Assembly: GCA_000004985.1 (NCBI GenBank)
Contig: GG738863.1
Reading direction: 5' to 3' (one strand)
DNA: 64,000 bases
Source of the DNA: Naegleria gruberi
Taxonomy: Eukaryota
Under the pieces are notes generated by a model, which was given only the letters and a program-made list of their open reading frames with translations, ran no database searches and was not told the origin of the DNA. This document shows, one piece after another, positions 2,887-48,156 of the stretch. Numbering within the stretch: position 1 is the stretch's first letter; each line of letters starts with the position of its first letter. A program made the translations under genes and the position numbers.

Positions 2887-4917
2887 TTATTCATCAGAGT
2901 GAATGGTATCATGTTGAAGAATCATATCATCTTCCTGTGGTTCAGTTTGATTATTGGTGGTGGTATTCTTTTGCAATTTCTTCTTTTTCTTTGCATGTCT
3001 TTCTAATCTTTGATGATACTTTTGACTGTGAGAGGCAACTTGAATTCTAGTTCTGGTTTTGACATATCTGTCAGCGATTTCTCTCCATTTACCATAACCC
3101 AAGTCCTTTAAACCTCTGAGGAATGCTTGGTGTTCTCTTTCTGACCAAGCTCCTTGGTTGACTCCTTCTTCCTTAATGTCAGAGTTGACAAATTTCATCT
3201 TTTTTGATGATTTTTCAACAATGAGATTTCTAAAGCAGAATTTCTTTTGATTGGAATCAGATGAATCATTGGAATCATCATCTAATAGTGCTGCATTGCT
3301 ATCTTCTGGTAGAATTTTAGTGGGTTGAGATTTCTCATCAAAGTCGAATTGTGATGAACTGGCAAGAATAATTTCTTGATTGGAGAGTTGAGATTCTGAG
3401 GAATGACCTTGAGATTTGATCTTTTTCTTCTTTTCAGGTGTGCCTTCTTTCGCCTTTCTCTTTTTTCTATTCTTTGAGTTGGATGGTGAATTAGTAACTG
3501 CTGGTTGACTAGGTTGATTTGACTTTTGATTGTCAATTGACTTTTGGCTATTTGAACCAAATTGATAACTAGGATGATGACTCATAAAACCAATATTGCA
3601 ACTATCATTAGATCTTGGAGTATTGTTTAGTGAATGTGATTGAACAGCAATGGTATTTAGTGGAACATGTTTCTCTAAAAGTGGATTCTCCTTATTAAGA
3701 AAAGCATTTTGATTAAATTGAGCATTAAATATATTCTCAGCAAGAAATCTTTCATTTGTTCTCTGAGCATTCATAATAGAGTTCCAAACCAATTGTTGAT
3801 CAGTTGGTTGTTGTTGCTGTTGTGCTTGTTTCATCAAACTTGGATCAACGTATGAATTTTGTTGAATTCTTTCTTGATTATTGAGAATTATTTGTTGCAT
3901 GTTGAGAAGTTTTTGCATGGTTGTTTGGTTGTTAGAATTTAATGCATCATAATTGAATGGATTATTGTACAATTCGTTGAAGGAGAGGTTTCTTTGTTGA
4001 GGTTGACTAGTGGATGAAGTGCAGGTTAGAGATTTGCCAGTGGAGGCGAAAGATAATTTGGAAGATTCGTCTAGTAAATCTCTTGATGGAAACTTGAATT
4101 CATTTTCATTATTTACAGTACCTAGAAGAGGAGATGATAGTGGAGGAAGTGGAAACTGATCAGTTTTTTGTGGAATTAGAGCACTTCCTGCATTGAGAGG
4201 AACGGTTGTATTAGTTTCGGCTACTTTAGAATATCTTCTCTGTTCCATAAAACTGAACAAGGAATTATCATACTCTCCAATATCATTCTTCTTATCGCTT
4301 AGAGTATGTTCACCAAAAGAGAAGCAACTATCTTCCTTATTGGTTGCATTAAAAACATTATTGGAACCAAAGAGTCCTATTCCTCCTTCCAAAGAATCTC
4401 TTGAATTTTCAATATCGAAAATTGAAGAGAGTCTTCTTTCTCTATTACCAAACCCTCCTTGGGAAGATTGATTCATAGAAGAAACTAATCCAGAAGAGGA
4501 TTGATTGACGACACTTTGTGGTTGAGTACCACTAGATCCCAATTGAAAGGGATCGTTAGGATTTGAGAATGGATTCATTGAGAGAAAGTCAAAACCACTA
4601 TTTGAGTTCATATTAGTATCTTCGAGTGGTGTTACATTTGAAACTACTCCTATTTGATTTGCTTGTAAATGAGAATTTGCTGATGTTGCACTCGATGAAG
4701 GAACCACTCCAGAGAAGAGTGAATGTTGTGAGAAGGGTAATTGAGGATTCACTCCAGCAACACTATTAGAGGTTGCTGAGGCTGCAGTTGTAGATGTTGC
4801 AAGTGCTGATGATGATAATGATGATGGAACTGTTGCTGAGGTAGTTGTAGATGTGAATGAAGAAGGACCAAATTGATTCATATTATTAGTATTTGCAACA
4901 TTACTCATTACTTTCAT
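2887..4917 (-). CDS. SHAQKYF-class single-repeat Myb/SANT DNA-binding protein with a Q/N/S-rich N-terminal region.
   Basis: The 676-aa ORF has a C-terminal WSEREHQAFLRGLKDLGYGKWREIADRYVKTRTRIQVASHSQKYHQRL, which is the SHAQKY(F) Myb signature (here SHSQKY). A basic KKKKIKS nuclear-localisation-like stretch lies upstream. The frame stays open upstream to the N gap at 4985, so the true start may lie beyond the gap. Confidence 0.7.
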   Translation of the reverse strand: MKVMSNVANTNNMNQFGPSSFTSTTTSATVPSSLSSSALATSTTAASATSNSVAGVNPQLPFSQHSLFSGVVPSSSATSANSHLQANQIGVVSNVTPLEDTNMNSNSGFDFLSMNPFSNPNDPFQLGSSGTQPQSVVNQSSSGLVSSMNQSSQGGFGNRERRLSSIFDIENSRDSLEGGIGLFGSNNVFNATNKEDSCFSFGEHTLSDKKNDIGEYDNSLFSFMEQRRYSKVAETNTTVPLNAGSALIPQKTDQFPLPPLSSPLLGTVNNENEFKFPSRDLLDESSKLSFASTGKSLTCTSSTSQPQQRNLSFNELYNNPFNYDALNSNNQTTMQKLLNMQQIILNNQERIQQNSYVDPSLMKQAQQQQQPTDQQLVWNSIMNAQRTNERFLAENIFNAQFNQNAFLNKENPLLEKHVPLNTIAVQSHSLNNTPRSNDSCNIGFMSHHPSYQFGSNSQKSIDNQKSNQPSQPAVTNSPSNSKNRKKRKAKEGTPEKKKKIKSQGHSSESQLSNQEIILASSSQFDFDEKSQPTKILPEDSNAALLDDDSNDSSDSNQKKFCFRNLIVEKSSKKMKFVNSDIKEEGVNQGAWSEREHQAFLRGLKDLGYGKWREIADRYVKTRTRIQVASHSQKYHQRLERHAKKKKKLQKNTTTNNQTEPQEDDMILQHDTIHSDE

Positions 4918-5079: not shown

Positions 5080-6625
5080 TTACTCTTCATAAATTGAAGC
5101 ATTAACTTGTGGTATGAGTTGGGACCATTGTTCGTGTAACTTTTGGTTGTATTCGATTTGTAAATTAAGGAAACTTTGCAACATGCAACTGAAATCAATC
5201 TTTCTTTCTAAATCGAAACGTTCCAAATCACTCTTGAATGATTGTTCAGATTCATTAAGTCTGTCAGTCTTTTGAACAACTCTTAGTTGACCTTCTTCAA
5301 TTTGAGTTTCCAAAATTTGTCTCTTATCTTCCTTCAAATTTGGCTTTTCCTTTTGAGCTTGCAATGAAGCCAAGTGAGATTGAGCACTATCCTTTTCATT
5401 TCTAGCTTCTTCAACTTGGGAAGCAGTATGTCTAATAGAATCACACATACCCAAATAATAAGTTAAGGTTTCAATAACTTGCATAGTTTCCTTTTGAGCT
5501 TGGTCATCGGTAACTTTGCTAATTTGTTCAGCTGATTGACCAACTGATAAAAGATTCTTAGCCAAAGTATTAGATTGGTCATATTCCTTTTCAATAGTAC
5601 CAACAAGAGCAAATGATTTACCATATTCCATAAAACCAGTTGCCATTTCCTTTCTCTTTGTAATCATGACTTGCAATCTTTGTCTAAGTTCCTTTAATGA
5701 ACTGTCCAACTTTTCAATAAACTTCTTGTGAGAGGTAATCCATTCTGGTTCTGGTGTAGAACCCTTTGATTTGAAAAGGGAGAAAGAACTACCACTTTTG
5801 GCTTTAGTTTTAACATTTTTCATTTGGTTGAATTCATCTTCATTTGCTTCGAGGAATTGTTGCAATTCTGATGAAGTTTGTAAAACTGGATGTTCACCAA
5901 CACGTGTCAAGAACTTGGTCAATGCACGTTGTCTATATTCTAACAATGAATTTGTATCTACAGAAGAGAAAATCTTTTCACTGAAGATTTTAATCCGTTA
6001 AAATTTCACATTAATTTTGACAGCAGTCAATAAATCGATTCAAAAAACAAAACTTACACTGAAGCCAAAATACTCTTTTCTGGCAATGGAGGAATAATAA
6101 TTCCACTATAAGAAGAAACTAACAATTCTCTGAACCAAACAAAGTCATTATATCTTCTATGACAAATCAAAGTAGCTTGTTTGTATTGATCAAGCTTGGT
6201 GTCAATAGTAATCTTGTACACCCAGTAAGACAAATCAAAAGTCTTACCAGTAGACTTCTTTTCAGGTTCACTGACAGAGAAAATAAACTACATATATTGT
6301 GATCCGATCCAAAAGTATTTAAAATATCATTAATAATCAAAATAATCAAAATATTAACAACAACAATAAAACCCCACACTACTTACAGCTGGTTCATCAC
6401 TATCGGCACTAGCTTGTACTTGATGTGGTTGAGAAGCAGGAAGAGTTGGATAATCCTCATTGTCAGCACTACGAATATCTTCACCTGTTGGTGGAGAAAT
6501 GAAGCCAGATTCATAATTATTGTTTTGGATTCTTCGTATTGTTGTTGTTCTTGATGTTCTTGGGCATCGTATTGTTGATGTTGTTGGTCGTCTTGTCCAA
6601 CTTGTTGATCGTCGTATGAGTCCAT
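5080..6625 (-). CDS. Sorting nexin with PX and BAR domains (SNX1/Vps5-like); multi-exon gene span.
   Basis: A PX exon (about 6070-6290, minus) encodes ...TFDLSYWVYKITIDTKLDQYKQATLICHRRYNDFVWFRELL, including the RRYxDFxWL PX motif. It joins through the intron GTAAGTTTTG...TCTTCAG to ORF 5080-5946, giving ...EKIFSSVDTNSLLEYRQRALTKFLTRVGEHPVLQTSSELQQFLEA followed by about 250 aa of helical BAR-type sequence. The N-terminal exon begins MDSYDDQQ at about 6625; a frame change there implies another small intron near 6520. Confidence 0.65.
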
Positions 6626-7002
6626 TTTTTCTGTGTGGTAAAACATTAAAAAAATCAAATGGTGCGATTTGGAGAGTTGTAAGAATCGATTGACATCACA
6701 CCATTATTAACAATTGTATATTGTTTAATTGGGCGACTGTATAGAGGTTGGCTATTTACCGGTGGTTATCGTATGGGGCGTGTTTTGAAAGGAGAATTTT
6801 GTAATTGAATTTTGAATGGTTATTCTGTGTGAAAAGTGTTTAACAACCGATAGCCTTAATGACACAACTTAGAAGCACCTTTGGAAGATATTTTTACGGA
6901 GTTTCAACAGTTGAGTAGATTTTCATTGTGAAATGGCAAGATTGTTAAGGATAAACTGAAATAATCATTAATATTCATTAATTTACAAATTTATTTACAT
7001 TA

Positions 7003-7575
7003 TTGTTGATTGGGTATTGAAGGAGGGGTTTGTTTCTTGATTTGTATATACTTTTTACTTCCTGGTGGTGATTCTTCCCTATTTGAAATATTTTAGAATT
7101 GCAAATCCAAATATACTTACCATTCAATAGCAGAAATATTCTTAGATTCATTAAATACCATGCAATATTCTCCAACTCTTGAAATATTTGCATTCCTTGA
7201 TGTTGTTAAATTAATACAATTCTTTTGCCACAATTGAGTTTGAGCTCCAATAATTCTGATAATATCACCTCCTACAATATAATCGGCTTTGTGATTCCAT
7301 AAAGTTAATGTAATGTAAGCTGTATCATCAGCCACAACAAAATATGTAATAAATTGATTATCCTTTGTTTTGATTGTTTGTTGTTTGTCTAGAACAATAC
7401 AAGTAATCGAAAAATCGGTCATGTTTGGTTTAAGATCAGCAATTTTATAATGTTTTTGATTCGGATCCATCAATTGTTGATTATTCGGATTATTATTTGT
7501 TGGAGGTGAATGTCTTCTATTCATTGATTGTTGTTGGCCATTGGGTGGCACGTTCACTGACGGAGGTTGTTGCAT
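7003..7575 (-). CDS. OB-fold ssDNA-binding protein, SOSS-B/NABP (hSSB1/2) homologue; 2 exons with an intron at about 7079-7118.
   Basis: ORF 7117-7575 encodes IADLKPNMTDFSITCIVLDKQQTIKTKDNQFITYFVVADDTAYITLTLWNHKADYIVGGDIIRIIGAQTQLWQKNCINLTTSRNANISRVGEYCMVFNE. This is collinear with NABP (IKDLKPGLKNLNVIFIVLE...[25 protein letters not shown]...[40 protein letters not shown]). The donor TG|GTAAGT at about 7118 and the acceptor ...TTTCAAATAG add a short C-terminal tail that ends at about 7003. Confidence 0.65.
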
Positions 7576-7660
7576 TTTTTAATAATTATTAAATAAATAA
7601 TTAATAATAATTATATGGTCCAATGATGGTTTTGTTTGGCTTTAAACACAGCAACTGTGG

Positions 7661-8331
7661 TTAAATTTTAGGCAATACTGTTTCTCCACTAGATCCTATA
7701 TTTGGCATTTTAATATTAGAGAAATTAGGAATATTAGCAGAAGAACCATCAACAAAATAATCAGAAAATTCCATATTTTGTGATGCTTGTTGTTGATTCA
7801 TCATCATGTTTTGTTGTAAAATATCTTCAGCTGTAATATATCTCTTCACTCGAGTAAATACATTGGCAGCATTTACAGCCATTCCTCCAATATTTTCCAA
7901 ATTCTTTTTAAATTAATTCCAACTCAAAGTTTTCATTTCCAACTTACCAATGGGAGAGCATTATCCGTTTTATGTCTCTGTTGATGTAATTTAACATAGT
8001 AAATATCTTCATCAATTTCATTTTCATCAATTTTTAATTCCTCTTCCTTCTTTTCAGGTTGAATATTGTTCTGAATTGATTTCCGATCATTAAAAAACGG
8101 TTTTCCACTCAATACATTCAACATTCCCCATACTAAAAACAATGGATTTTCTCTCATCAATTTTCTAAATGAATTAATTTTTCTAGTTGTGTATTGTGTG
8201 ACGTAGACAGACAATAGGCTTGTTAAAATTACTACGAATATATTCTTTGAATTTCCAATCAATAATTGATTCATGAGTAAATTACCCATAGCCTTGTCGG
8301 TACCTGGATTGTTCGATTGTTGCCTTTGCAT
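7661..8331 (-). CDS. Hypothetical membrane protein; 2 exons (7933-8331 and 7661-7900) joined by the intron GTAAGTTGGAAATG...AAAAAG.
   Basis: The minus-strand ORFs join in frame (...ALPLV|NLENIGGMAVNAANVF...). A hydrophobic stretch (IFVVILTSLLSVYVTQY) suggests one transmembrane segment. I do not recognise a family. Confidence 0.4.
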
Positions 8332-8879
8332 TTTTTTAATTCAAATATTTATTATTTAAATAATATTTAATTTATTACAATTTGAAAGTGATGAAAAGAA
8401 CCCCTAATAAAATTATTACAAACAAGGATTCAGAAGATAAGATCCTATCTATAATTGGATAGAGTTTTTGTTGATGAATAAAAAAGTCTTTTTCATTGTG
8501 AATCTCAATGGTTCATAGTAAGGATTAACGATTAATAAACATCTGAAGTGCTTGTTACAAGGTCGATCGACCAATGTTCATCAATTCGGTGCTGTTATCA
8601 AATGATTGTAGTGCAGAGACAATATTGGCCAAGTTGTTCACCTCTTTGAAATCCATCAGTAGATCTCGAGCAAAAAGGCGCCAACAGTGTTTCTGTTTAT
8701 TATGTCCCTGTACATTTTAGCTTCAAAAAAAAACATCAAACCATCACCACCCTTTTAGCTCTCCCTTAGTAATCAAATTATTTTCCATCTACAACCATCT
8801 TGTACAGAGTTTTTCTTTTGCGAAATCTTATCAAACATATCTCAAACCCTTGTTAATAGAGGAAATTTAAAATAACAAA

Positions 8880-11511
8880 ATGTCATCTCCCAATAGTAGT
8901 AGACACCAGAGTCCTCTCTTCAGAAGAAGGAACGATCTTTCGATAAATGTCGATAATGATAATTCATTTCAAAAATCGGATGATAATTCTAACTCTTCTC
9001 AATCAAGATCGAGTAAGTATATTATTGACTTTTTAATATGGAAGGCATTATGAAATAATTTAAGGAGGAAGATATCTTTCCCCAGTTTCAAGAAATAGAG
9101 TGATACAAATGGAAAACGAGATATATGATGATGTATTTATGCAAAATAATAACTCTCTCATATATGAGAGGTTGTTCAATGCAATGGAAAAAGATAGAAC
9201 ACAAATAGTCGAGAAGGATAGGGAGAAGAAGTGGAACTCTCGATTCCATTTAGATCCAATGCCCTCATACAATGTAATGAAAGACAAACATGCCAAAATG
9301 TATACAGGTTCGACTACCTTTATTTCCCCTAATACGTCACAACAAAGAACAAGAATACAACCCTATGAACCTGCTTCTTCAGCAAAACAAGAACAACAAC
9401 CAGTCTCTGTAAGTACATCAACAAGAGAGTTATGTTATTCATACACGAACAACAAAAAGAAGAGAAAAATTAGTTCTGCCTCCTCAACCCGAAGAAGAAG
9501 TAACTCGGATAATCAAAAATCCACAATAAGTGATAATGGGAAGTCCTCATCAAAACCTCCTTTGGAACAAAAGAAATCATTGGCCGATATTGAGGCAGAA
9601 CACTTCTTTGCTAAGTCAAAATCTAGGATACAAAAACTCTGGAGTGAACTCAGAGTACCACAAGATGAAATAGATAGATTCTCTCGAATCTATCTTTCTA
9701 AATGCTCCAATGATAATATTGCCATTGTTACAGAAGAAATTAAGCGATTAACAGAACAAAGAAATCTCATTCTCTCAATTCTTAAAAATATTGAAAACAG
9801 AGAATTACTGCTGGAAACTCTGTATTCTCTCGTAGAGCGTTATGGTGACGAAAAGATATTCAGTAAGCATTTAGTTGCAAGAGAAGTCAAGAATATCGCT
9901 GCTTCATTGAGGCTTTGTACTTTGGAAATTGTAGAATCTATTGTACAGTGGAGAAATATTTTACAAGCACCAAAGCCATTTGTTTGGAGATCGAAGAATT
10001 ATTTACTCAAAATCCAAACAGATCTAGATTTCTTTTTAATGTCATCACTCATTTCACTCCTTCCAAATGTAAACCCTCTTAAAAATCCATTCCTAATGCC
10101 AGGTATTGAATTTGGAGCAACAACCAATTCTCAATCACTCGACAAGAAATCACATCCAACCTCGCCAAACAGAAAAAGACCAAAATTTGATTCTTCACCT
10201 TATCTTGCTGGAGGTAGTACTGCATTACCTCCTCTTTCAAAATTGAGACAGGCATCACCTGCTGACAATGATCCTCTCAAAGAAAGAATTTTATATGCCC
10301 AAAAAGTAGTCTTCTCTGAAGGAAAAGGAGTGAATGATTCATTTGGATCCCAAACTTGTAATTCTCCATCCAGAGATGACAAGGTTGTAATAGCCCCATA
10401 CGAAGAATTAGGTGGAAAGGAGGAAGAAGTCGGTGAAGAAAATGATTTATATGCTAGACAAATTGAGGAACAGAGATTGAAAGAGGAGAGAAAGAGACAA
10501 TTAGAAGAAGAGCAAAGAATGAAGGAGGAAAAGAAGAGACAGCAACTTGCAGAAAAGAAGAAGGAAGAAGAAAGACTGAGGAAAGAGAGGGAAACAATAG
10601 GCTTTGTTCTTATTATTCAATCTGCTTTAAGAGGAAGAAAGGCAAGACAAATTCTTGCACACGAGTATAAGGTTGAGGCTGAACGAGCAGCTGTCAAAAT
10701 CCAATCCCAAGTTAGAAAGAATATGGCCAAAAAGAAGGTTGACAATATCAAGAGAGATAAGTCAATCTTGATTATGCAAGCATGTTATAGAGGAAAGTCC
10801 GAGTTGGCAATGTTTGAATACACTAAGGAATTCTGCTCAATCATTGAGGCCTGTGTTGAAGGTATGACAGCTAGAAGAGCCTATTTTGAGGAACAAAACC
10901 ATAATGCCATCACTGAAAATATCTATGGTGAAGAGGAAGAAGAACCATCTGTTGAGGAAGTTGAGCAGGATTTGTCTCAATTTGAAAAACTTGTTGCTCT
11001 TTGTAAGGGTCATTTGAGTAGAGTTGTCTTCAGATCAGAATTGAAAGCACACAAGCAACAAGAAGCTGACAGATTGAAACAATTGAAGGAAGAAGAATTG
11101 AGACTCGAAGCAGAAAAAAGAGAAAAAGCTGCCATCAAAATTCAAAGTCAAATCAGATCCTTCTTGGCAAAGAAGAAGACTCAACAAGTTGCTGAACAAA
11201 AGAAGCAAGCCTTCATGGAAGAATTAGAACAAGAGAGAAGAGAATACGAAGCTGCCAGAGAAGAAAGAAAGAGACTGAAACAAGAAAGTGCCATTATCAC
11301 TATTCAAAAGAGTTTCAGAGGCTACTTGGGAAGAGCACAATATGCTGAATTGCTCAGAAGGTATGAAGCAGCCACAAAGATTCAATGTATGGTAAGACAA
11401 AAGTTTGCCAGAAAGAAGGCCATGTCTGTCAAACAAAGAAAACAAATGGAAATGGAAAAGTTTTTGCAAGACGAAAGAGCACAATATGAAGCTCTCCTTG
11501 CTCAATTATAA
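8880..11511 (+). CDS. IQ-motif (calmodulin-binding) protein with a charged E/K/R-rich coiled-coil region; 2 exons with an intron at about 8995-9085.
   Basis: The ATG at 8880 (MSSPNSSRHQSPLFRRR...) joins through a GTAAGT donor and a CCCCAG acceptor in frame to ORF 9100-11511. There are at least six IQ motifs: IQSALRGRKARQ, AVKIQSQVRKNMAKKK, IMQACYRGKSELAMFEY, AAIKIQSQIRSFLAKKK, ITIQKSFRGYLGRAQY and ATKIQCMVRQKFARKK. They sit within ER/K-rich helices (KEERKRQLEEEQRMKEEKKRQQLAEKKKEEERLRKERE). Confidence 0.65.
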
Positions 11512-43058: not shown

Positions 43059-44489
43059 ATGAAGAGCATTATCATCGCAATCTTGATTGCTCTCTTTGCT
43101 TGCACTTTTGTGTTTGCACAAGATTCTGTTGTTGATCTTACATCAAAGAACTTTGAAGAAAAGTTACAAGAAAAGGAATTTGCCTTGATTGAATTCTTTG
43201 CTCCATGGTGTGGTCATTGTAAGAAATTGGTCCCTGAATATAATAAGCTCGCTGAAAAGTTTGCTACCAATGAAAAGGTTAACATTTTCAAGGTTAATGG
43301 TGACCAAGAATCTGATGTCATGTCTAAGTTTGAAATTCAAGGTTTCCCAACTATCAAGTTGTTCAAGAATGGTAAATTCTTCAGAGATTATGATGGTGAA
43401 CGTACTGCTGATGCTATTGCTTCTTGGTTGCACAAGAAGACTGGTCCTGTCAGTATTCCAATTGAATCTGCTGAAGCTTTGGATCAATTGAAGGCTTCCT
43501 CTAAGGTTATTGTTGTTGGTTTCGTTTCATCAAAGACTTCTGAAACCTACAAGAAGTTCCTCCAAGCTGCTGATGATAAGGATTTGGAAGAATTCATTGT
43601 TGCTGAAGTTGTTGACAATGCTGAATTGAATGCCAAATTCGATATTAAGCAAGATTCTGTTGTTGTTATCAGAGATTTTGATGCTACTCCTGCTGTTTCT
43701 ACTGATTTCGATGCTATTGCCACTTTTGTCAAGGATAATGGTTATCCATTGGTTGATGAAGTTAGTGGTGCTACTTTCCAAAGATTTGTTGATAAGGCTT
43801 TGCCAATTGGTGTCCTTTTCATTGATTTCTCCAATGCTGAAACTAAACAAAAGCACGTTGAAGAATTGAACGAAATTGCTCAATCATTCAAGGGTAAGGT
43901 TTCATTGGGTTACTCTGATGCTGCTGTTTATGGTGGTCAATTGGAAGTTATGGGTGGTAAGAAGGATGCCATTCCAGGTTTCGCTGTCATGGATTTGGAA
44001 ACTAGATCAAACTATCCACTCAATATTGATACTGTTAATAAGGAAGAAATCATTGCTTTCCTTACCAAGGTTTTGGCTGGTGAAGTTCCAAAGTTCTTGA
44101 GATCTCAAGAAATTCCAGAAGAAAACAATGAAGCTGTTAAGGTTGTTGTCGGAAAGTCATTTGATGATTTGGTTATTAACAATGATAATGATGTTTTGCT
44201 CGAATTCTATGCTCCATGGTGTGGTCACTGTAAGTCACTCGAACCAAAGTACACTCAATTGGCTGAAGAATTGAAGTCTGTCTCTGGTTTGGTTATTGCC
44301 AAGATTGATGCTTCTGAAAATGATACTCCAATCAACATTGAAGGTTTCCCAACCATTTACTTCTTCCCTAAGGGTGGTAAGGCTTCTCCAGTTTTGTATG
44401 AAGGTGATAGAACTGTTGAAAGCTTAAAGACTTTCTTACAAAAGAATGCTGTTGGTGCTGTTTTCACTGAAAAGAAGGACGAATTGTAA
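43059..44489 (+). CDS. PDI: Protein disulfide isomerase (ER-lumenal, a-b-b'-a' architecture).
   Basis: The 476-aa product has a signal peptide (MKSIIIAILIALFACTFVFA). It carries two thioredoxin active sites (FFAPWCGHCKKL and FYAPWCGHCKSL) and the C-terminal ER-retrieval signal KDEL. Confidence 0.9.
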   Translation: MKSIIIAILIALFACTFVFAQDSVVDLTSKNFEEKLQEKEFALIEFFAPWCGHCKKLVPEYNKLAEKFATNEKVNIFKVNGDQESDVMSKFEIQGFPTIKLFKNGKFFRDYDGERTADAIASWLHKKTGPVSIPIESAEALDQLKASSKVIVVGFVSSKTSETYKKFLQAADDKDLEEFIVAEVVDNAELNAKFDIKQDSVVVIRDFDATPAVSTDFDAIATFVKDNGYPLVDEVSGATFQRFVDKALPIGVLFIDFSNAETKQKHVEELNEIAQSFKGKVSLGYSDAAVYGGQLEVMGGKKDAIPGFAVMDLETRSNYPLNIDTVNKEEIIAFLTKVLAGEVPKFLRSQEIPEENNEAVKVVVGKSFDDLVINNDNDVLLEFYAPWCGHCKSLEPKYTQLAEELKSVSGLVIAKIDASENDTPINIEGFPTIYFFPKGGKASPVLYEGDRTVESLKTFLQKNAVGAVFTEKKDEL

Positions 44490-45114
44490 ATTTACATTTT
44501 AAACCCAATCTCTAAATAAATATATTTATTCATAAAAAGTTATTCTTCAATCAATAATTAGAACTTCAACAATATTAAGGTTGTTTTCAAAAGAATTTAG
44601 TTGTACTATTATTGCACAGCTGTTTTCTGTAGATGAGAAAATGGACAAAAAAATCACAAGTAAATGATCAACAATTAAAACTAGTGAATGTAGTGTTCGA
44701 TATCGATAGAAAAGAGAATAACCACATACATTGTTTGGTTGGAATTAGTGTTATTTTAACATGGGTATGACTCATAGTAGGAAATAGATGATGTTCATAA
44801 AATGGTTGAAGTACAAACAAAGAAGAAAATAGAGGATAATGGATGACAATTTAAAGTTTTTAAATTATGTGGATGACAAATTTCTTCATATGAAACTCCA
44901 ATGTAAAATATTATTCAATATTAAATTATATTATAAATTTGTTTTATTTATCGCGGAAGAGAGATTATCATTAAAATTTTAATTGGTTCTATCAATTAAC
45001 AACAATTTTCTCTTCGCCAGGTGTTCTTTTTGTAAACGGTTGACTTGGTCATTGGTAACAAATTTGTTTTTAAAAAAAAAGTCTCTACGTAGATTTATCC
45101 ACCATTATATAAAA

Positions 45115-45764
45115 ATGTCGAACAGTTTCAATCTTTTGGAACACGCTTCAAACAGCGATCCACTCGAAATTGCTTCATCTGCCAAGAAGGAAGTTAAGCA
45201 AGAAAAGCCAAAAGTTGAAGAAAAGAAGCCAGTTCAACAACAAAGAAAGCCAAAGCCAACTTCTGCTCCATCCGAAGTTGTCGAAGAAGGTTTCCAAGGA
45301 ACCCGTTCTAAGACTAGAGGTGGTAGACAACAACACCAAGGATACCAACCACCAAAGAAGGGTAGAACTTTCGATCGTCATGTCTCTGGTACTGGTANNN
45401 NNNNNNNNNNNNNNNNNNNNNNNNNNNNNNNNNNNNNNNNNNNNNNNTTCCAAAAGGAAAAGAAGAAGGTTGAAAAGGCTGCTGAAAAGAGTCTGCTGCT
45501 TCTAAGCCAAAGACTGTTGCTGTTTCTGAATTCTTAGATACTGCTTCAATTGAAAAGATCAAGGAAAGAAGAGATAAGGAATTGTTGGAAGGTCCAAAGC
45601 AACCAAGAGGTCCAAGACAAGACAGACCAGAAAGAACTGATAGAAAGGGTGGTAAGCCACAAAACAAGGGTCAAAAGGGTGCCAAGCCAGCCTCAGGCCA
45701 AAAGAAGCCACGTCCAGTCATCAACAAGGAAAAGGACTTCCCTGCTCTCAGCCCACAAAACTAA
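45115..45764 (+). CDS. Stm1/SERBP1/HABP4-family mRNA- and ribosome-associated protein; the coding sequence is interrupted by an N gap, with the frame shifting across it.
   Basis: The product begins MSNSFNLLEHASNSDPLEIASSAKKEVKQEKPKVEEKKPVQQQRKPKPTSAPSEVVEEGFQGTRSKTRGGRQQHQGYQPPKKGRTFDRHVSGTG. The N-terminal NxFxLL motif and the FDRH-SGTG motif match Stm1 (TDRHSRTGK). After the gap it continues in another frame: ...LEGPKQPRGPRQDRPERTDRKGGKPQNKGQKG.... Confidence 0.55.
45398..45447. other. Assembly gap (50 N) inside the Stm1-like coding sequence.
   Basis: A run of n characters; the reading frame differs on the two sides. Confidence 0.99.
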
Positions 45765-45816
45765 ATTTGTTGAACCTAAAAAAAACCATATAAATATAAT
45801 TTAAAATTCTTAAAAT

Positions 45817-46515
45817 TTATTCATAATTTATTTTAGCACTTTTCCATGTTTTTCCCCAATTTTCATCTGTTTGAATATGACCCTTTCTTACATACTTGGC
45901 AATATTTCGTTCAAAATCCTTGTTTGCAAATGTTTGAGTTGATTTGATAACAAATCCTTCTAGACCTTCTCCTCCTCCGACTTGACTAATCTTCTTATCT
46001 TTAATTCTTTCATCCATCCATTGTTTAATTTCATCAAGAGAAGTGAATGTACCTCTGTATAGAACTGGAACAATTGGAACCATACTCGATAAATCATTAT
46101 CATTAATAAAATTGATCATTTCATCCCATCCATACCATCTATTATCTTGTAAATCTAAAATTGCAAATAAATAAAAGTATGATTTCAAATTATTATATTC
46201 TATAGAGTGAATTCCGTACATATTCTCTCCAAACAATACTAAATGATCAGGTATCAGAAATGAAAATTGAGAATATAATTGTTTGATAGGTCCAAAACTT
46301 GCATGTGTTGCCTCCTTATTTGTTGTTCTAGCAAAGATCTTTCCTTGAAATAATTGACAATTGCCACCATCCATCTTTTCGGTAATAATCACTTCTTGAC
46401 CAACAAATTGTGTACAATGTTGATTGGAAAGTACAACATCATCATCTTGATGTTCGGGAGAGAATGGTAAATGTGGTGTTTTTGGATACTTTTGTGTTTG
46501 AAATTTAGATGCCAT
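45817..46515 (-). CDS. Minimal ATP-dependent polynucleotide (RNA) ligase-like protein of the covalent nucleotidyltransferase superfamily; intronless.
   Basis: The 232-aa single-exon ORF carries ligase motif I (TEKMDGGNC, KxDGxN with the lysine nucleophile). It also has motif III (LVLFGENMYG), motif IV (EGLEGFVIKS, EGxVxK) and motif V (AKYVRKGH). Confidence 0.6.
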   Translation of the reverse strand: MASKFQTQKYPKTPHLPFSPEHQDDDVVLSNQHCTQFVGQEVIITEKMDGGNCQLFQGKIFARTTNKEATHASFGPIKQLYSQFSFLIPDHLVLFGENMYGIHSIEYNNLKSYFYLFAILDLQDNRWYGWDEMINFINDNDLSSMVPIVPVLYRGTFTSLDEIKQWMDERIKDKKISQVGGGEGLEGFVIKSTQTFANKDFERNIAKYVRKGHIQTDENWGKTWKSAKINYE

Positions 46516-47204: not shown

Positions 47205-47278
47205 TACGCCGTAAGGGAGTCGAACCCTTGACCTTCAGCGTGTAAAGCTGACGATCTAACCAACTGATCTAACGGCGC
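47205..47278 (-). tRNA. tRNA-Val(UAC): tRNA-Val, anticodon UAC; no intron.
   Basis: Minus-strand sequence GCGCCGT-TA-GATC-AGTTGGTTA-GATC-G-TCAGC-TTTACAC-GCTGA-AGGTC-AAGGG-TTCGACT-CCCTT-ACGGCGT-A. The acceptor stem is 7 bp (with G1-U72), and the D, anticodon and T stems all pair perfectly. It has a GTTCGA T-loop, U33 and A37, and anticodon TAC. A T-rich run follows the 3' end (minus-strand sense). Confidence 0.85.
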
Positions 47279-47475: not shown

Positions 47476-48156
47476 ATGCCTAAATTCTATTGCGATTATT
47501 GTGATGTATTTTTAACAAATGATTCAATTTCTGTCCGAAAACTTCATTGCAAAGGTTGGAGACATAAAACCAATGTAAGAGCTTTTTTTGCTCAATTTGT
47601 TGGAGATCCTACAAGTGCTCTCATGGTTTCAACTCAACAAGTGCCTAAAGAAGACGCAAAGGAAGTTCCAAGTTTAATGATTGGAGTACAACCCGAACAA
47701 ATGATGATGGGTGTACCTTTACTAGTGAATGGAATGCTTGTACAAAATGGAGTTATTCTTCCAAATCCTTCAGCATCAGGAACAATGATGATCTTACAAA
47801 ATAATTTATCAAATACAAACAATAATCAAACAATACAAACATCATCAACAACAACAACAACATCATCTTCTGCTGCTAGTAATCCTACTCAACATATTTC
47901 TAATAATGTACTTCATGCAATAGGTCAAATGACAAAAACACCAGAAAATTCAATTCCTCCATTCCCTGATACCTCATTCAAGCCACCATTTGCAGATGAA
48001 AATTCACAACAACCAAATTGGTTTTTATTTCCTCCACCACCTCCTCCTCACTTGATTAATTTATGTCCAAATATTCCACTTACAGGAAGTTATCAGCAAA
48101 CAGCACCATCACCTCCATTCCCATACATGTTACAAAAACAAAAAGTTGTAAATTAA
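47476..48156 (+). CDS. SNRPC: U1 small nuclear ribonucleoprotein C (U1-C, matrin-type C2H2 zinc finger).
   Basis: The N-terminus [34 protein letters not shown] is nearly identical to the U1-C zinc finger ([34 protein letters not shown]). The C-terminal half is low-complexity M/P/Q-rich, as in U1-C orthologues. Confidence 0.85.
   Translation: [226 protein letters not shown]

Follow-up and report, generated by a model that had tools for sequence, protein, structure and literature searches.

The gene considered here is a ligase-like open reading frame (ORF) at positions 45817-46515, minus strand, of a 64,000-nucleotide stretch of contig GG738863.1 from Naegleria gruberi—this whole stretch is referred to below as the window—and the experimentally studied member of its family is bacterial. 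This protein, DR_B0100 (LigB/DdrP) of Deinococcus radiodurans, forms an AMP adduct that is lost in a K40A mutant (PMC1997131). Its operon is induced by ionising radiation (PMC6300522, PMC1978522, PMC5397189), and the phenotype of its knockout is disputed (PMC1978522; PMC6300522). N. gruberi itself has an unusually rich set of RNA-repair enzymes; Unciuleac and Shuman listed 13 ATP-dependent RNA ligases in this organism—seven of Rnl1 type, five of Rnl2 type, and NgrRnl—and characterised the Rnl5 family through its N-terminal domain, which plays an important part in adenylylation and in the sealing of nicks (PMC4408790). In comparative-genomic surveys, phage proteins of the kind discussed below have been lumped under the ‘Rnl2 family’ and read as tRNA-repair enzymes (PMC7824862).

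The Naegleria gene is real and conserved, and it is another member of the already known, enigmatic LigB/DdrP family; judged from its sequence, the protein belongs to the branch of PF09414 that consists of a nucleotidyltransferase (NTase) domain only. We consider it likely that the protein is a stand-alone ATP-dependent NTase of the DR_B0100 family that performs the sealing step of heal-and-seal end repair. The ORF runs uninterrupted in frame from ATG to stop, a complete and intronless coding sequence of 232 amino acids, as the initial annotation had described it. Its product matches the N. gruberi ‘predicted protein’ EFC45507.1 / XP_002678251.1 / NAEGRDRAFT_66741 at 100% identity, which marks the window as nuclear DNA of this species. 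This protein is not among the 13 listed RNA ligases (PMC4408790), and the Naegleria protein included in the Diplonema Rnl2 study, XP_002674912.1, is a different one; we found no discussion of eukaryotic LigB-family members in the literature searched.

The initial annotation had also read the protein as a minimal ATP-dependent ligase-type NTase, and the profile search and the structural model bear this out. Pfam PF09414 (RNA_ligase) matches with 104.8 bits (cutoff 27; E=7.2e-30) over profile positions 2-171 of 171, while PF09511, the Rnl1/Trl1-type profile, gives no match at E<=1. The sequence holds the motif I KxDG lysine and motifs III, IIIa, and IV in canonical order, and the AlphaFold2 (AF2) model, with a predicted local distance difference test score (pLDDT) of 95.6, is a single compact domain with the adenylyltransferase fold. 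Compared with known folds, the model is closest to NgrRnl (5cot; 16.0) and the T4 Rnl2 N-domain (1s68; 15.4), followed by MthRnl (14.2), REL1 (14.1), DNA ligases (10-13), and Trl1 and T4 Rnl1 (~11-12). The alignment to known folds takes in about 180 of the 232 residues; the rest make up a conserved N-terminal segment of 30-40 residues and a C-terminal tail of 21 residues. The protein ends 21 residues past motif V, and the AF2 model contains no OB fold or other accessory domain, again as first described.

Conservation was scored in an alignment of 105 homologues, in which S19, D26, K47, D49, G50, R63, E97, Y107, E186, G187, K207, V209, and H213 are invariant. The N-terminal family signature, KYPKTPHLPFSPEHQDDD (aa 9-26; 46438..46491, minus strand, as are all motifs of this gene), contains S19 and D26 together with K9, Y10, T13, H15, P20, and D25, each conserved at >=90%; it is modelled at a pLDDT of ~98 and is common to D. 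radiodurans DR_B0100 and to phage and bacterial members. Motif I, ITEKMDGGN (aa 44-52; 46360..46386), carries K47 (nt 46375-46377), the predicted AMP-attachment lysine, with D49 and G50; the invariant K47, which speaks for the ligase assignment alongside the PF09414 match, aligns with K40 of DR_B0100. A motif Ia-like segment, FARTT (aa 61-65; 46321..46335), holds R63, whose position after motif I in the profile alignment suggests that it is the counterpart of T4 Rnl2 R55. Motif III, VLFGENM (aa 93-99; 46219..46239), includes E97 and leads into the family-typical G-I-H-S-I-E-Y, and in motif IIIa, YFYLFAILD (aa 113-121; 46153..46179), the residue aligned with T4 Rnl2 F119 is F117, conserved at >=90%. 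Motif IV, EGFVIK (aa 186-191; 45943..45960), contributes E186 and G187.

Motif V, AKYVRK (aa 206-211; 45883..45900), departs from the usual form. The earlier reading of motifs I, III, IV, and V as canonical stands for their order, and the catalytic residues are invariant; motif V, however, is a variant in which K207 is kept and the second lysine of the K-x-K pattern is replaced by valine (V209) in all members aligned, with R210 conserved at >=90%. From the motif IV glutamate to the motif V lysine there are 21 residues both in the Naegleria protein (E186-K207) and in T4 Rnl2 (E204-K225); K207 thus corresponds to K225, and V209 stands at the place of the second T4 Rnl2 lysine, K227. Alignment of the family profile with T4 Rnl2 by hhalign covered motifs I-IIIa only (57% probability), so the equivalence in motif V is settled by spacing. 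Blasius et al. had noted that DRB0100 ‘seems to lack motif V’ (PMC1997131). R210 and H213 may stand in for the second lysine. H213 lies in the C-terminal family tail, GHIQTDENWGKTWKSAKI (aa 212-229; 45829..45882), in which Q215, W220, and W224 are conserved at >=90%; the tail sits where other RNA ligases carry C-terminal domains, and its GHVQTDxHW is also present in DR_B0100.

These features tie the Naegleria protein directly to the Deinococcus system. DR_B0100 was located by tblastn of plasmids with a Deinococcus sp. homologue, which led to megaplasmid MP1 of D. radiodurans R1; it is 36% identical to the Naegleria ORF over 214 aa (E=3e-41). The operon there encodes a ligase-like protein of 210 aa, a microbial PARG (PF10021), and a 413-aa HD + AAA_33 protein (HD-Pnk), matching the published DR_B0100-DR_B0099-DR_B0098 with K40 as the motif I lysine. 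The two proteins are alike in consisting of the NTase domain only (210 and 232 aa), with aligned catalytic lysines (K40 and K47), and in sharing the N-terminal KYPxxPHLPxSP..DD and the K-[YW]-V-R-x-G-H-x-Q-T-D variant of motif V and tail. They differ in setting: DR_B0100 heads a radiation-induced operon with PARG and HD-Pnk, whereas the Naegleria gene is monocistronic and has no linked healing enzyme. In addition, the type found in Naegleria, phages, and Bacteroidota differs from DR_B0100 in its extended C-terminal W...W..A.L tail and in a small insertion that precedes motif IV.

The full family signature—KYP[RK]TPHLPFSP..DD at the N-terminus, FGENM.GIHSIEY after motif III, and AK[YW]VR.GH.QTD..W at the C-terminus—is common to phages, bacteria, and Naegleria. 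Among PHROGs the match is to phrog_34045, of ‘unknown function’ (E=2.7e-49). NCBIfam has no model for the family (the only match, to TIGR01209, is below threshold), and NCBI labels its members ‘RNA ligase family protein’ or, wrongly, ‘2'-5' RNA ligase’; PADLOC has no model either, so the family is not catalogued as a component of defence systems. Membership in the strict Rnl2 family (T4 Rnl2, REL1) can be rejected, as the signature C-terminal domain is missing: T4 Rnl2 has this domain (aa 244-329) and K227, while the Naegleria protein lacks the domain, has valine at the K227 position, and falls in phrog_34045, a sequence cluster separate from T4 Rnl2 and trypanosome REL1. The Rnl5 family (NgrRnl, DraRnl) is rejected likewise because its clade-defining N-terminal domain is absent; identity with NgrRnl is 17%, with no sequence-level match, and only 43 residues precede motif I. 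The likeness to ‘Naegleria-type’ RNA ligases proposed in the initial annotation is thereby withdrawn. An Rnl1/Trl1-type enzyme (PF09511) does not fit, as there is no PF09511 match, no C-terminal domain, and only a partial Trl1 profile match over motifs III-IV.

The proposed reaction would follow three steps. We infer with confidence that the Naegleria protein self-adenylylates on K47 in an ATP-dependent first step, because the homologous K40 of DR_B0100 does so. In the second step the AMP would be handed to a 5'-phosphate end, and in the third a 3'-OH would attack to form the phosphodiester; fold, conserved residues and motifs, and genomic context all point to these two steps. The ends would first be healed by a 5'-OH polynucleotide kinase and a 2',3'- or 3'-phosphoesterase of HD, HAD, PTP-SAK, or 2H type, and in Naegleria the ligase would work in trans, with the healing enzymes encoded elsewhere in the genome. 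The coupling to kinases and phosphoesterases in bacteria, some phages, and eukaryote-type fusions indicates that the most likely role is sealing in the repair of 5'-OH / 2',3'-cyclic or 3'-phosphate breaks, most probably in RNA such as tRNA. Because it lacks an accessory domain for substrate binding and its motif V is a variant, the enzyme probably depends on a partner protein or on a certain type of end or RNA structure.

The genomic context behind this proposal comes from a large family: at least 6,879 clusters at 90% identity (E<=1e-20), more than 550 matches in species-representative prokaryotic genomes, and at least 212 viral contigs, mostly of 100-550 kb, with annotated jumbo phages including Atu_ph07, SCTP-2, XacN1, and CcrBL9. 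Kinase linkage was counted over 80 bacterial loci by probe searches. A Pnk-type kinase is fused to the ligase in 19 loci, immediately adjacent on the same strand in 34, within 5 kb in 13, and not found in 14; kinase and ligase are thus fused or adjacent in 53 of the 80, and the kinase is usually HD-Pnk. By Pfam assignment, Firmicutes place Pnk-HD upstream of the ligase, and other phyla place HD-Pnk downstream in overlapping ORFs; this overlapping ligase-then-HD-Pnk order occurs in family members from Bacteroidota, Deinococcus, Meiothermus, and Akkermansia (Verrucomicrobiota). Among phages, one lineage has the ligase ORF overlapping that of a T4-type Pnkp (AAA_33 + HAD_PNKP), and in another the ligase lies near an Rnl1-type ligase.

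Several loci show further features. In Thermodesulfobacteriota and Binatia, an AAA_15/AAA_21 ABC-type ATPase and a PIN nuclease lie directly upstream of the ligase on the same strand (L028:3121-4964 and L036:3121-4967; also L021:4052-4957), an arrangement suggestive of a conflict-type module that combines nuclease and repair functions and differs from the HD-Pnk operons. Bacteroidota ligase/HD-Pnk loci have same-strand genes a few kilobases upstream, for a beta-CASP/RMMBL RNA-specific metallo-beta-lactamase nuclease (L088:1783-3180) or, at another locus, a DEAD-box helicase (L017:3-1661). The member in Caulobacter phage CcrBL9 (L012:3545-4624) has an N-terminal extension of ~150 aa without a Pfam match, corresponding to phrog_24030, and in Terrestrivirus (BFVD A0A3G4ZM97, 859 aa) the ligase module is embedded in a larger polypeptide.

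Actinomycetes encode ligase-AAA_33 fusions, as assigned by Pfam, followed by a 966-aa protein of MJ1316 + EEP + 2H + PAP type; in one Streptomyces sp. the fusion spans L026:5001-6728 and the second gene 6731-9628. This pair resembles an entire RNA-repair cassette whose activities parallel those of Trl1, and family members in actinomycetes in effect rebuild a LIG-KIN + 2H arrangement. A single-sequence PDB search with the Naegleria protein returned nothing at E<=1; the family profile, by comparison, found the Candida glabrata Trl1 ligase domain (9qw7) as its best PDB match (E=2e-6, over motifs III-IV), ahead of a weak match to T4 Rnl2 (E=0.06), so that the fungal/plant Trl1 ligase domain is the nearest profile match for the family. 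As in the stand-alone RNLs of Mucorales and Branchiostoma, the Naegleria ligase is encoded apart from healing enzymes.

The Runella slithyformis ligase-like gene offers a second described comparison: its ORF overlaps the start of HD-Pnk in a cluster that also encodes Tpt1 and an MTase-HIT protein (PMC6097658). To judge from gene arrangement, it very probably belongs to the LigB family, because family members show the same ligase/HD-Pnk overlap. The Runella cluster differs in including Tpt1, which was seen in none of the LigB-family loci examined.

These comparisons bear on an alternative that we regard as unlikely, namely a Trl1-like ligase that needs a 3'-OH,2'-PO4 end produced by a 2H cyclic phosphodiesterase, with Tpt1 then stripping the 2'-phosphate from the junction. 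Such a requirement would leave standard 2'-OH substrates unsealed. The Trl1 domain as best PDB match agrees with it, as do weak PF09511 matches in some family members, the 2H phosphoesterase right after the ligase-kinase fusion in Streptomyces, the Tpt1 gene in the Runella cluster (PMC6097658), and the PARG/macro-type enzyme, which acts on ADP-ribose adducts, in the Deinococcus operon. However, Pfam assigns the Naegleria protein to PF09414 and not to PF09511; the arginines proposed to bind the 2'-PO4, R334 and R337 (Chaetomium; PMC10946426), lie beyond the 232-aa length, with no equivalent module; and the commonest partners—HD, HAD, and PTP-SAK—are generally expected to leave 2',3'-OH ends.

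Several points weigh against a sealing role as such. The second motif V lysine of T4 Rnl2, K227, is essential, and in this family it is replaced by the invariant V209. In viral contigs a Pnk-type gene lies within 3 kb in just 6 of 80, and no kinase or phosphatase healing gene adjoins the ligase in the window—as had been reported for the N. gruberi locus—or in the syntenic Naegleria and Willaertia loci. No LigB-family member has yet been shown to seal any substrate alone: DR_B0100 failed to seal nicked DNA, RNA/DNA hybrids, single-stranded RNA, or DNA ends under many conditions, and this held even with its operon partners (PMC1997131; PMC5397189), while the Runella protein, studied in the Shuman laboratory, forms an AMP adduct and likewise shows no sealing (PMC6097658). 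The radiation-induced operon also means that the substrate could be DNA and not RNA. The description of the Naegleria gene as an RNA-repair enzyme is accordingly kept in part: a role in end repair is plausible given the kinase and phosphoesterase fusions and neighbours, but the name ‘RNA ligase’ goes too far, because the only biochemically tested member adenylylates and seals no standard substrate alone.

We hold it to be improbable that the protein is a DNA-repair ligase whose joining of breaks requires a multiprotein complex, the behaviour claimed for D. radiodurans LigB together with DR_B0098 and PprA. This reading would agree with the strong radiation induction of the DR_B0100 operon and with one study in which the mutant was radiosensitive and DNA ligation dependent on DR_B0098 and PprA was reported (Kota 2010, as summarised in PMC6300522); the titles of two papers indicate that HD-Pnk heals DNA ends too. 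Another study, in contrast, found the knockout fully radiation-resistant, and no combination of operon proteins ligated DNA (PMC1997131, PMC1978522). The neighbours of the family are also RNA-centred—the MJ1316 RNA cyclic-end domain, 2H, a PAP/CCA-type nucleotidyltransferase, and PIN, as well as T4-type Pnkp, phage Rnl1, and the beta-CASP RNase with its RNA-specificity domain—and the protein has no OB or DNA-binding domain.

Slightly less probable still is a non-joining adenylyltransferase that would stop at an adenylylated 5' end (AppRNA/AppDNA) or would modify some other target with AMP. Step 1 is the only step ever observed in the family, every member lacks the second motif V lysine, and there is no accessory domain to position the 3'-OH strand. 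The motif Ia arginine, the motif III and IV glutamates, and the motif IIIa aromatic residue are nevertheless conserved, the arginine and glutamates invariantly so; in other ligases these residues are linked to steps 2 and 3. The systematic coupling to a healing kinase/phosphatase makes sense mainly if the ends are then joined, and isolated NTase domains of T4 Rnl2 and NgrRnl keep step 3 activity (PMC4408790). The sealing step of heal-and-seal repair is our preferred reading of the gene.

Eukaryotic members extend well beyond N. gruberi. Within Heterolobosea they occur in N. lovaniensis (78% identity to N. gruberi), N. fowleri, Willaertia (76%), Acrasis (56%), and Pharyngomonas; elsewhere we found them in the choanoflagellate Didymoeca, the foraminiferan Bolivina, the chlorarachniophyte Amorphochlora, the glass sponge Oopsacas, the chytrid Borealophlyctis, the green alga Symbiochloris, and several MMETSP and EukProt transcripts. 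In a neighbour-joining tree of 83 sequences (208 columns, 100 bootstraps), the named eukaryotes separate from all named bacteria and phages in 86/100 replicates, Heterolobosea group together in 73/100, and Naegleria groups with Willaertia in 100/100; phage sequences group with bacteria. Some eukaryotic members are themselves fused to healing domains: the chytrid protein joins a PTP-SAK phosphatase to the ligase, as does P0304, while P0259 and P0268 combine the ligase with an AAA_33 kinase, and the Bolivina transcript ends in a kinase P-loop. Two metagenomic eukaryote-type proteins, P0258 (482 aa) and P0270 (465 aa), contain the ligase domain in two tandem copies. N-terminal extensions of 130-190 aa without a Pfam match are present in the eukaryote-type P0045, P0049 (Amorphochlora), P0088, and P0265, and those of P0045 and P0049 share recognisable stretches.

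The initial annotation had proposed that the gene was horizontally acquired or lineage-specific, and neither suggestion is supported. The N. lovaniensis locus is collinear with window positions ~51041-41268, about 10 kb, and keeps the gene order ligase, HABP4/PAI-RBP1 (tail-to-tail with the ligase), PDI, QCR9, and NIF phosphatase; HABP4 still adjoins the ligase in N. fowleri and Willaertia. With synteny in all three relatives and at least 6,879 clusters in the family, the gene is not specific to one lineage. In N. fowleri and N. lovaniensis the ligase gene has two GT-AG introns, each interrupting the same codon in the same phase in both species (N. lovaniensis L013:5393-5487, 95 nt, and 5562-5624, 63 nt; N. 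fowleri L179:3399-3504, 106 nt, and 3579-3642, 64 nt). N. gruberi and Willaertia have none, and Acrasis has one at another site; the introns were either gained in the fowleri/lovaniensis lineage or else lost twice in parallel. Third-position GC content (GC3) is 0.19 against 0.28 ± 0.11 in 26 other long ORFs of the window (z=-0.8), and the correlation of relative synonymous codon usage (RSCU) is 0.86, typical and as for neighbouring genes, so that the codon-usage comparison gives no sign of a foreign gene. With nonsynonymous differences (pN) of 0.13-0.17 against synonymous differences (pS) of 0.58-0.67, dN/dS comes to ~0.09-0.18. The ligase is a long-resident, vertically inherited, functional nuclear gene under purifying selection, as follows from synteny, the introns of sister species, typical composition, low dN/dS, and the eukaryote clade.

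A recent bacterial or phage transfer, or contamination of the N. gruberi assembly, is therefore a reading to which we give next to no weight. It could draw on the intronless, bacterial-sized gene, on the 33-41% identity to bacterial and jumbo-phage proteins, and on the patchy eukaryotic distribution. Against it stand the collinearity with N. lovaniensis and the HABP4 neighbour kept in N. fowleri and Willaertia, the two shared introns, codon composition like that of the neighbouring genes, and a tree in which the named eukaryotes form one clade, the closest relatives all being heteroloboseans at 56-78% identity. On the evidence of synteny, introns, composition, and phylogeny, both recent horizontal transfer and contamination were rejected. 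A transfer in the distant past, between an early eukaryote and prokaryotes or phages, is possible. Nothing specific speaks for a viral origin of the eukaryotic clade, as no viral contig exceeds 41% identity and the phages group with bacteria.

The immediate surroundings of the gene add little to its function. Upstream of the N. gruberi ligase lie a tRNA-Val(TAC) at 47205-47278 (minus strand), 690 bp from the ligase ATG, and a U1C-like zinc-finger gene at 47476-48156 (plus strand); at this place N. lovaniensis has a Glyco_transf_61 gene (L013:3087-4665) and no tRNA, a local rearrangement of the collinear locus. The tRNA neighbour first pointed out is thus present but not conserved: there is no tRNA within 5 kb of the orthologues, and a functional tie between the two genes was rejected for this reason. 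The duplicated segment that had been noted beside the ligase proved to be part of the neighbouring PDI gene (ORF 43059-44489), whose two WCGHC thioredoxin domains account for the direct repeats, which are 73-74% identical and separated by about 1 kb (43185-43261 / 44196-44272 and 43335-43373 / 44337-44375); a segmental duplication was accordingly discarded. Both the tRNA neighbour and the ‘duplication’ are coincidental to the ligase gene. The HABP4/PAI-RBP1-like gene (~45099-45771, plus strand) is tail-to-tail with the ligase ORF, with stop codons ~50 bp apart, and its interior contains a run of N (masked or unsequenced bases) at 45399-45447.

A more far-reaching idea, which we put forward tentatively and hold to be rather doubtful, is that LigB/DR_B0100-type enzymes form a separate ligase class made of the NTase domain alone and adapted to a non-standard substrate. 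If true, the two independent failures to detect sealing would be explained, and the altered motif V would, with the conserved segments at both termini, fit the enzymes to an end that carries a 2'-phosphate or some other modification, to a specific tRNA break, or to joining assisted by proteins. The LigB-type enzymes would then be a present-day equivalent of the stand-alone NTase domain that has been proposed as the ancestor of ligases and capping enzymes, and the eukaryotic clade—Heterolobosea, Rhizaria, a choanoflagellate, a sponge, a chytrid, and a green alga—would represent an old, overlooked end-repair enzyme.

For N. gruberi, the gene adds one more of ligase type to the 13 published ATP-dependent RNA ligases. 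For the family, Naegleria and a broad eukaryotic clade are now tied to the enigmatic LigB/DdrP proteins, which are very widespread in bacteria and jumbo phages, nearly always occur in linkage with end-healing enzymes, and whose joining substrate has eluded at least two laboratories. The monocistronic eukaryotic member, together with the kinase and phosphatase fusions in protists and fungi, provides independent evidence for a heal-and-seal role, and the Naegleria gene offers a second experimental system in the hunt for that substrate.

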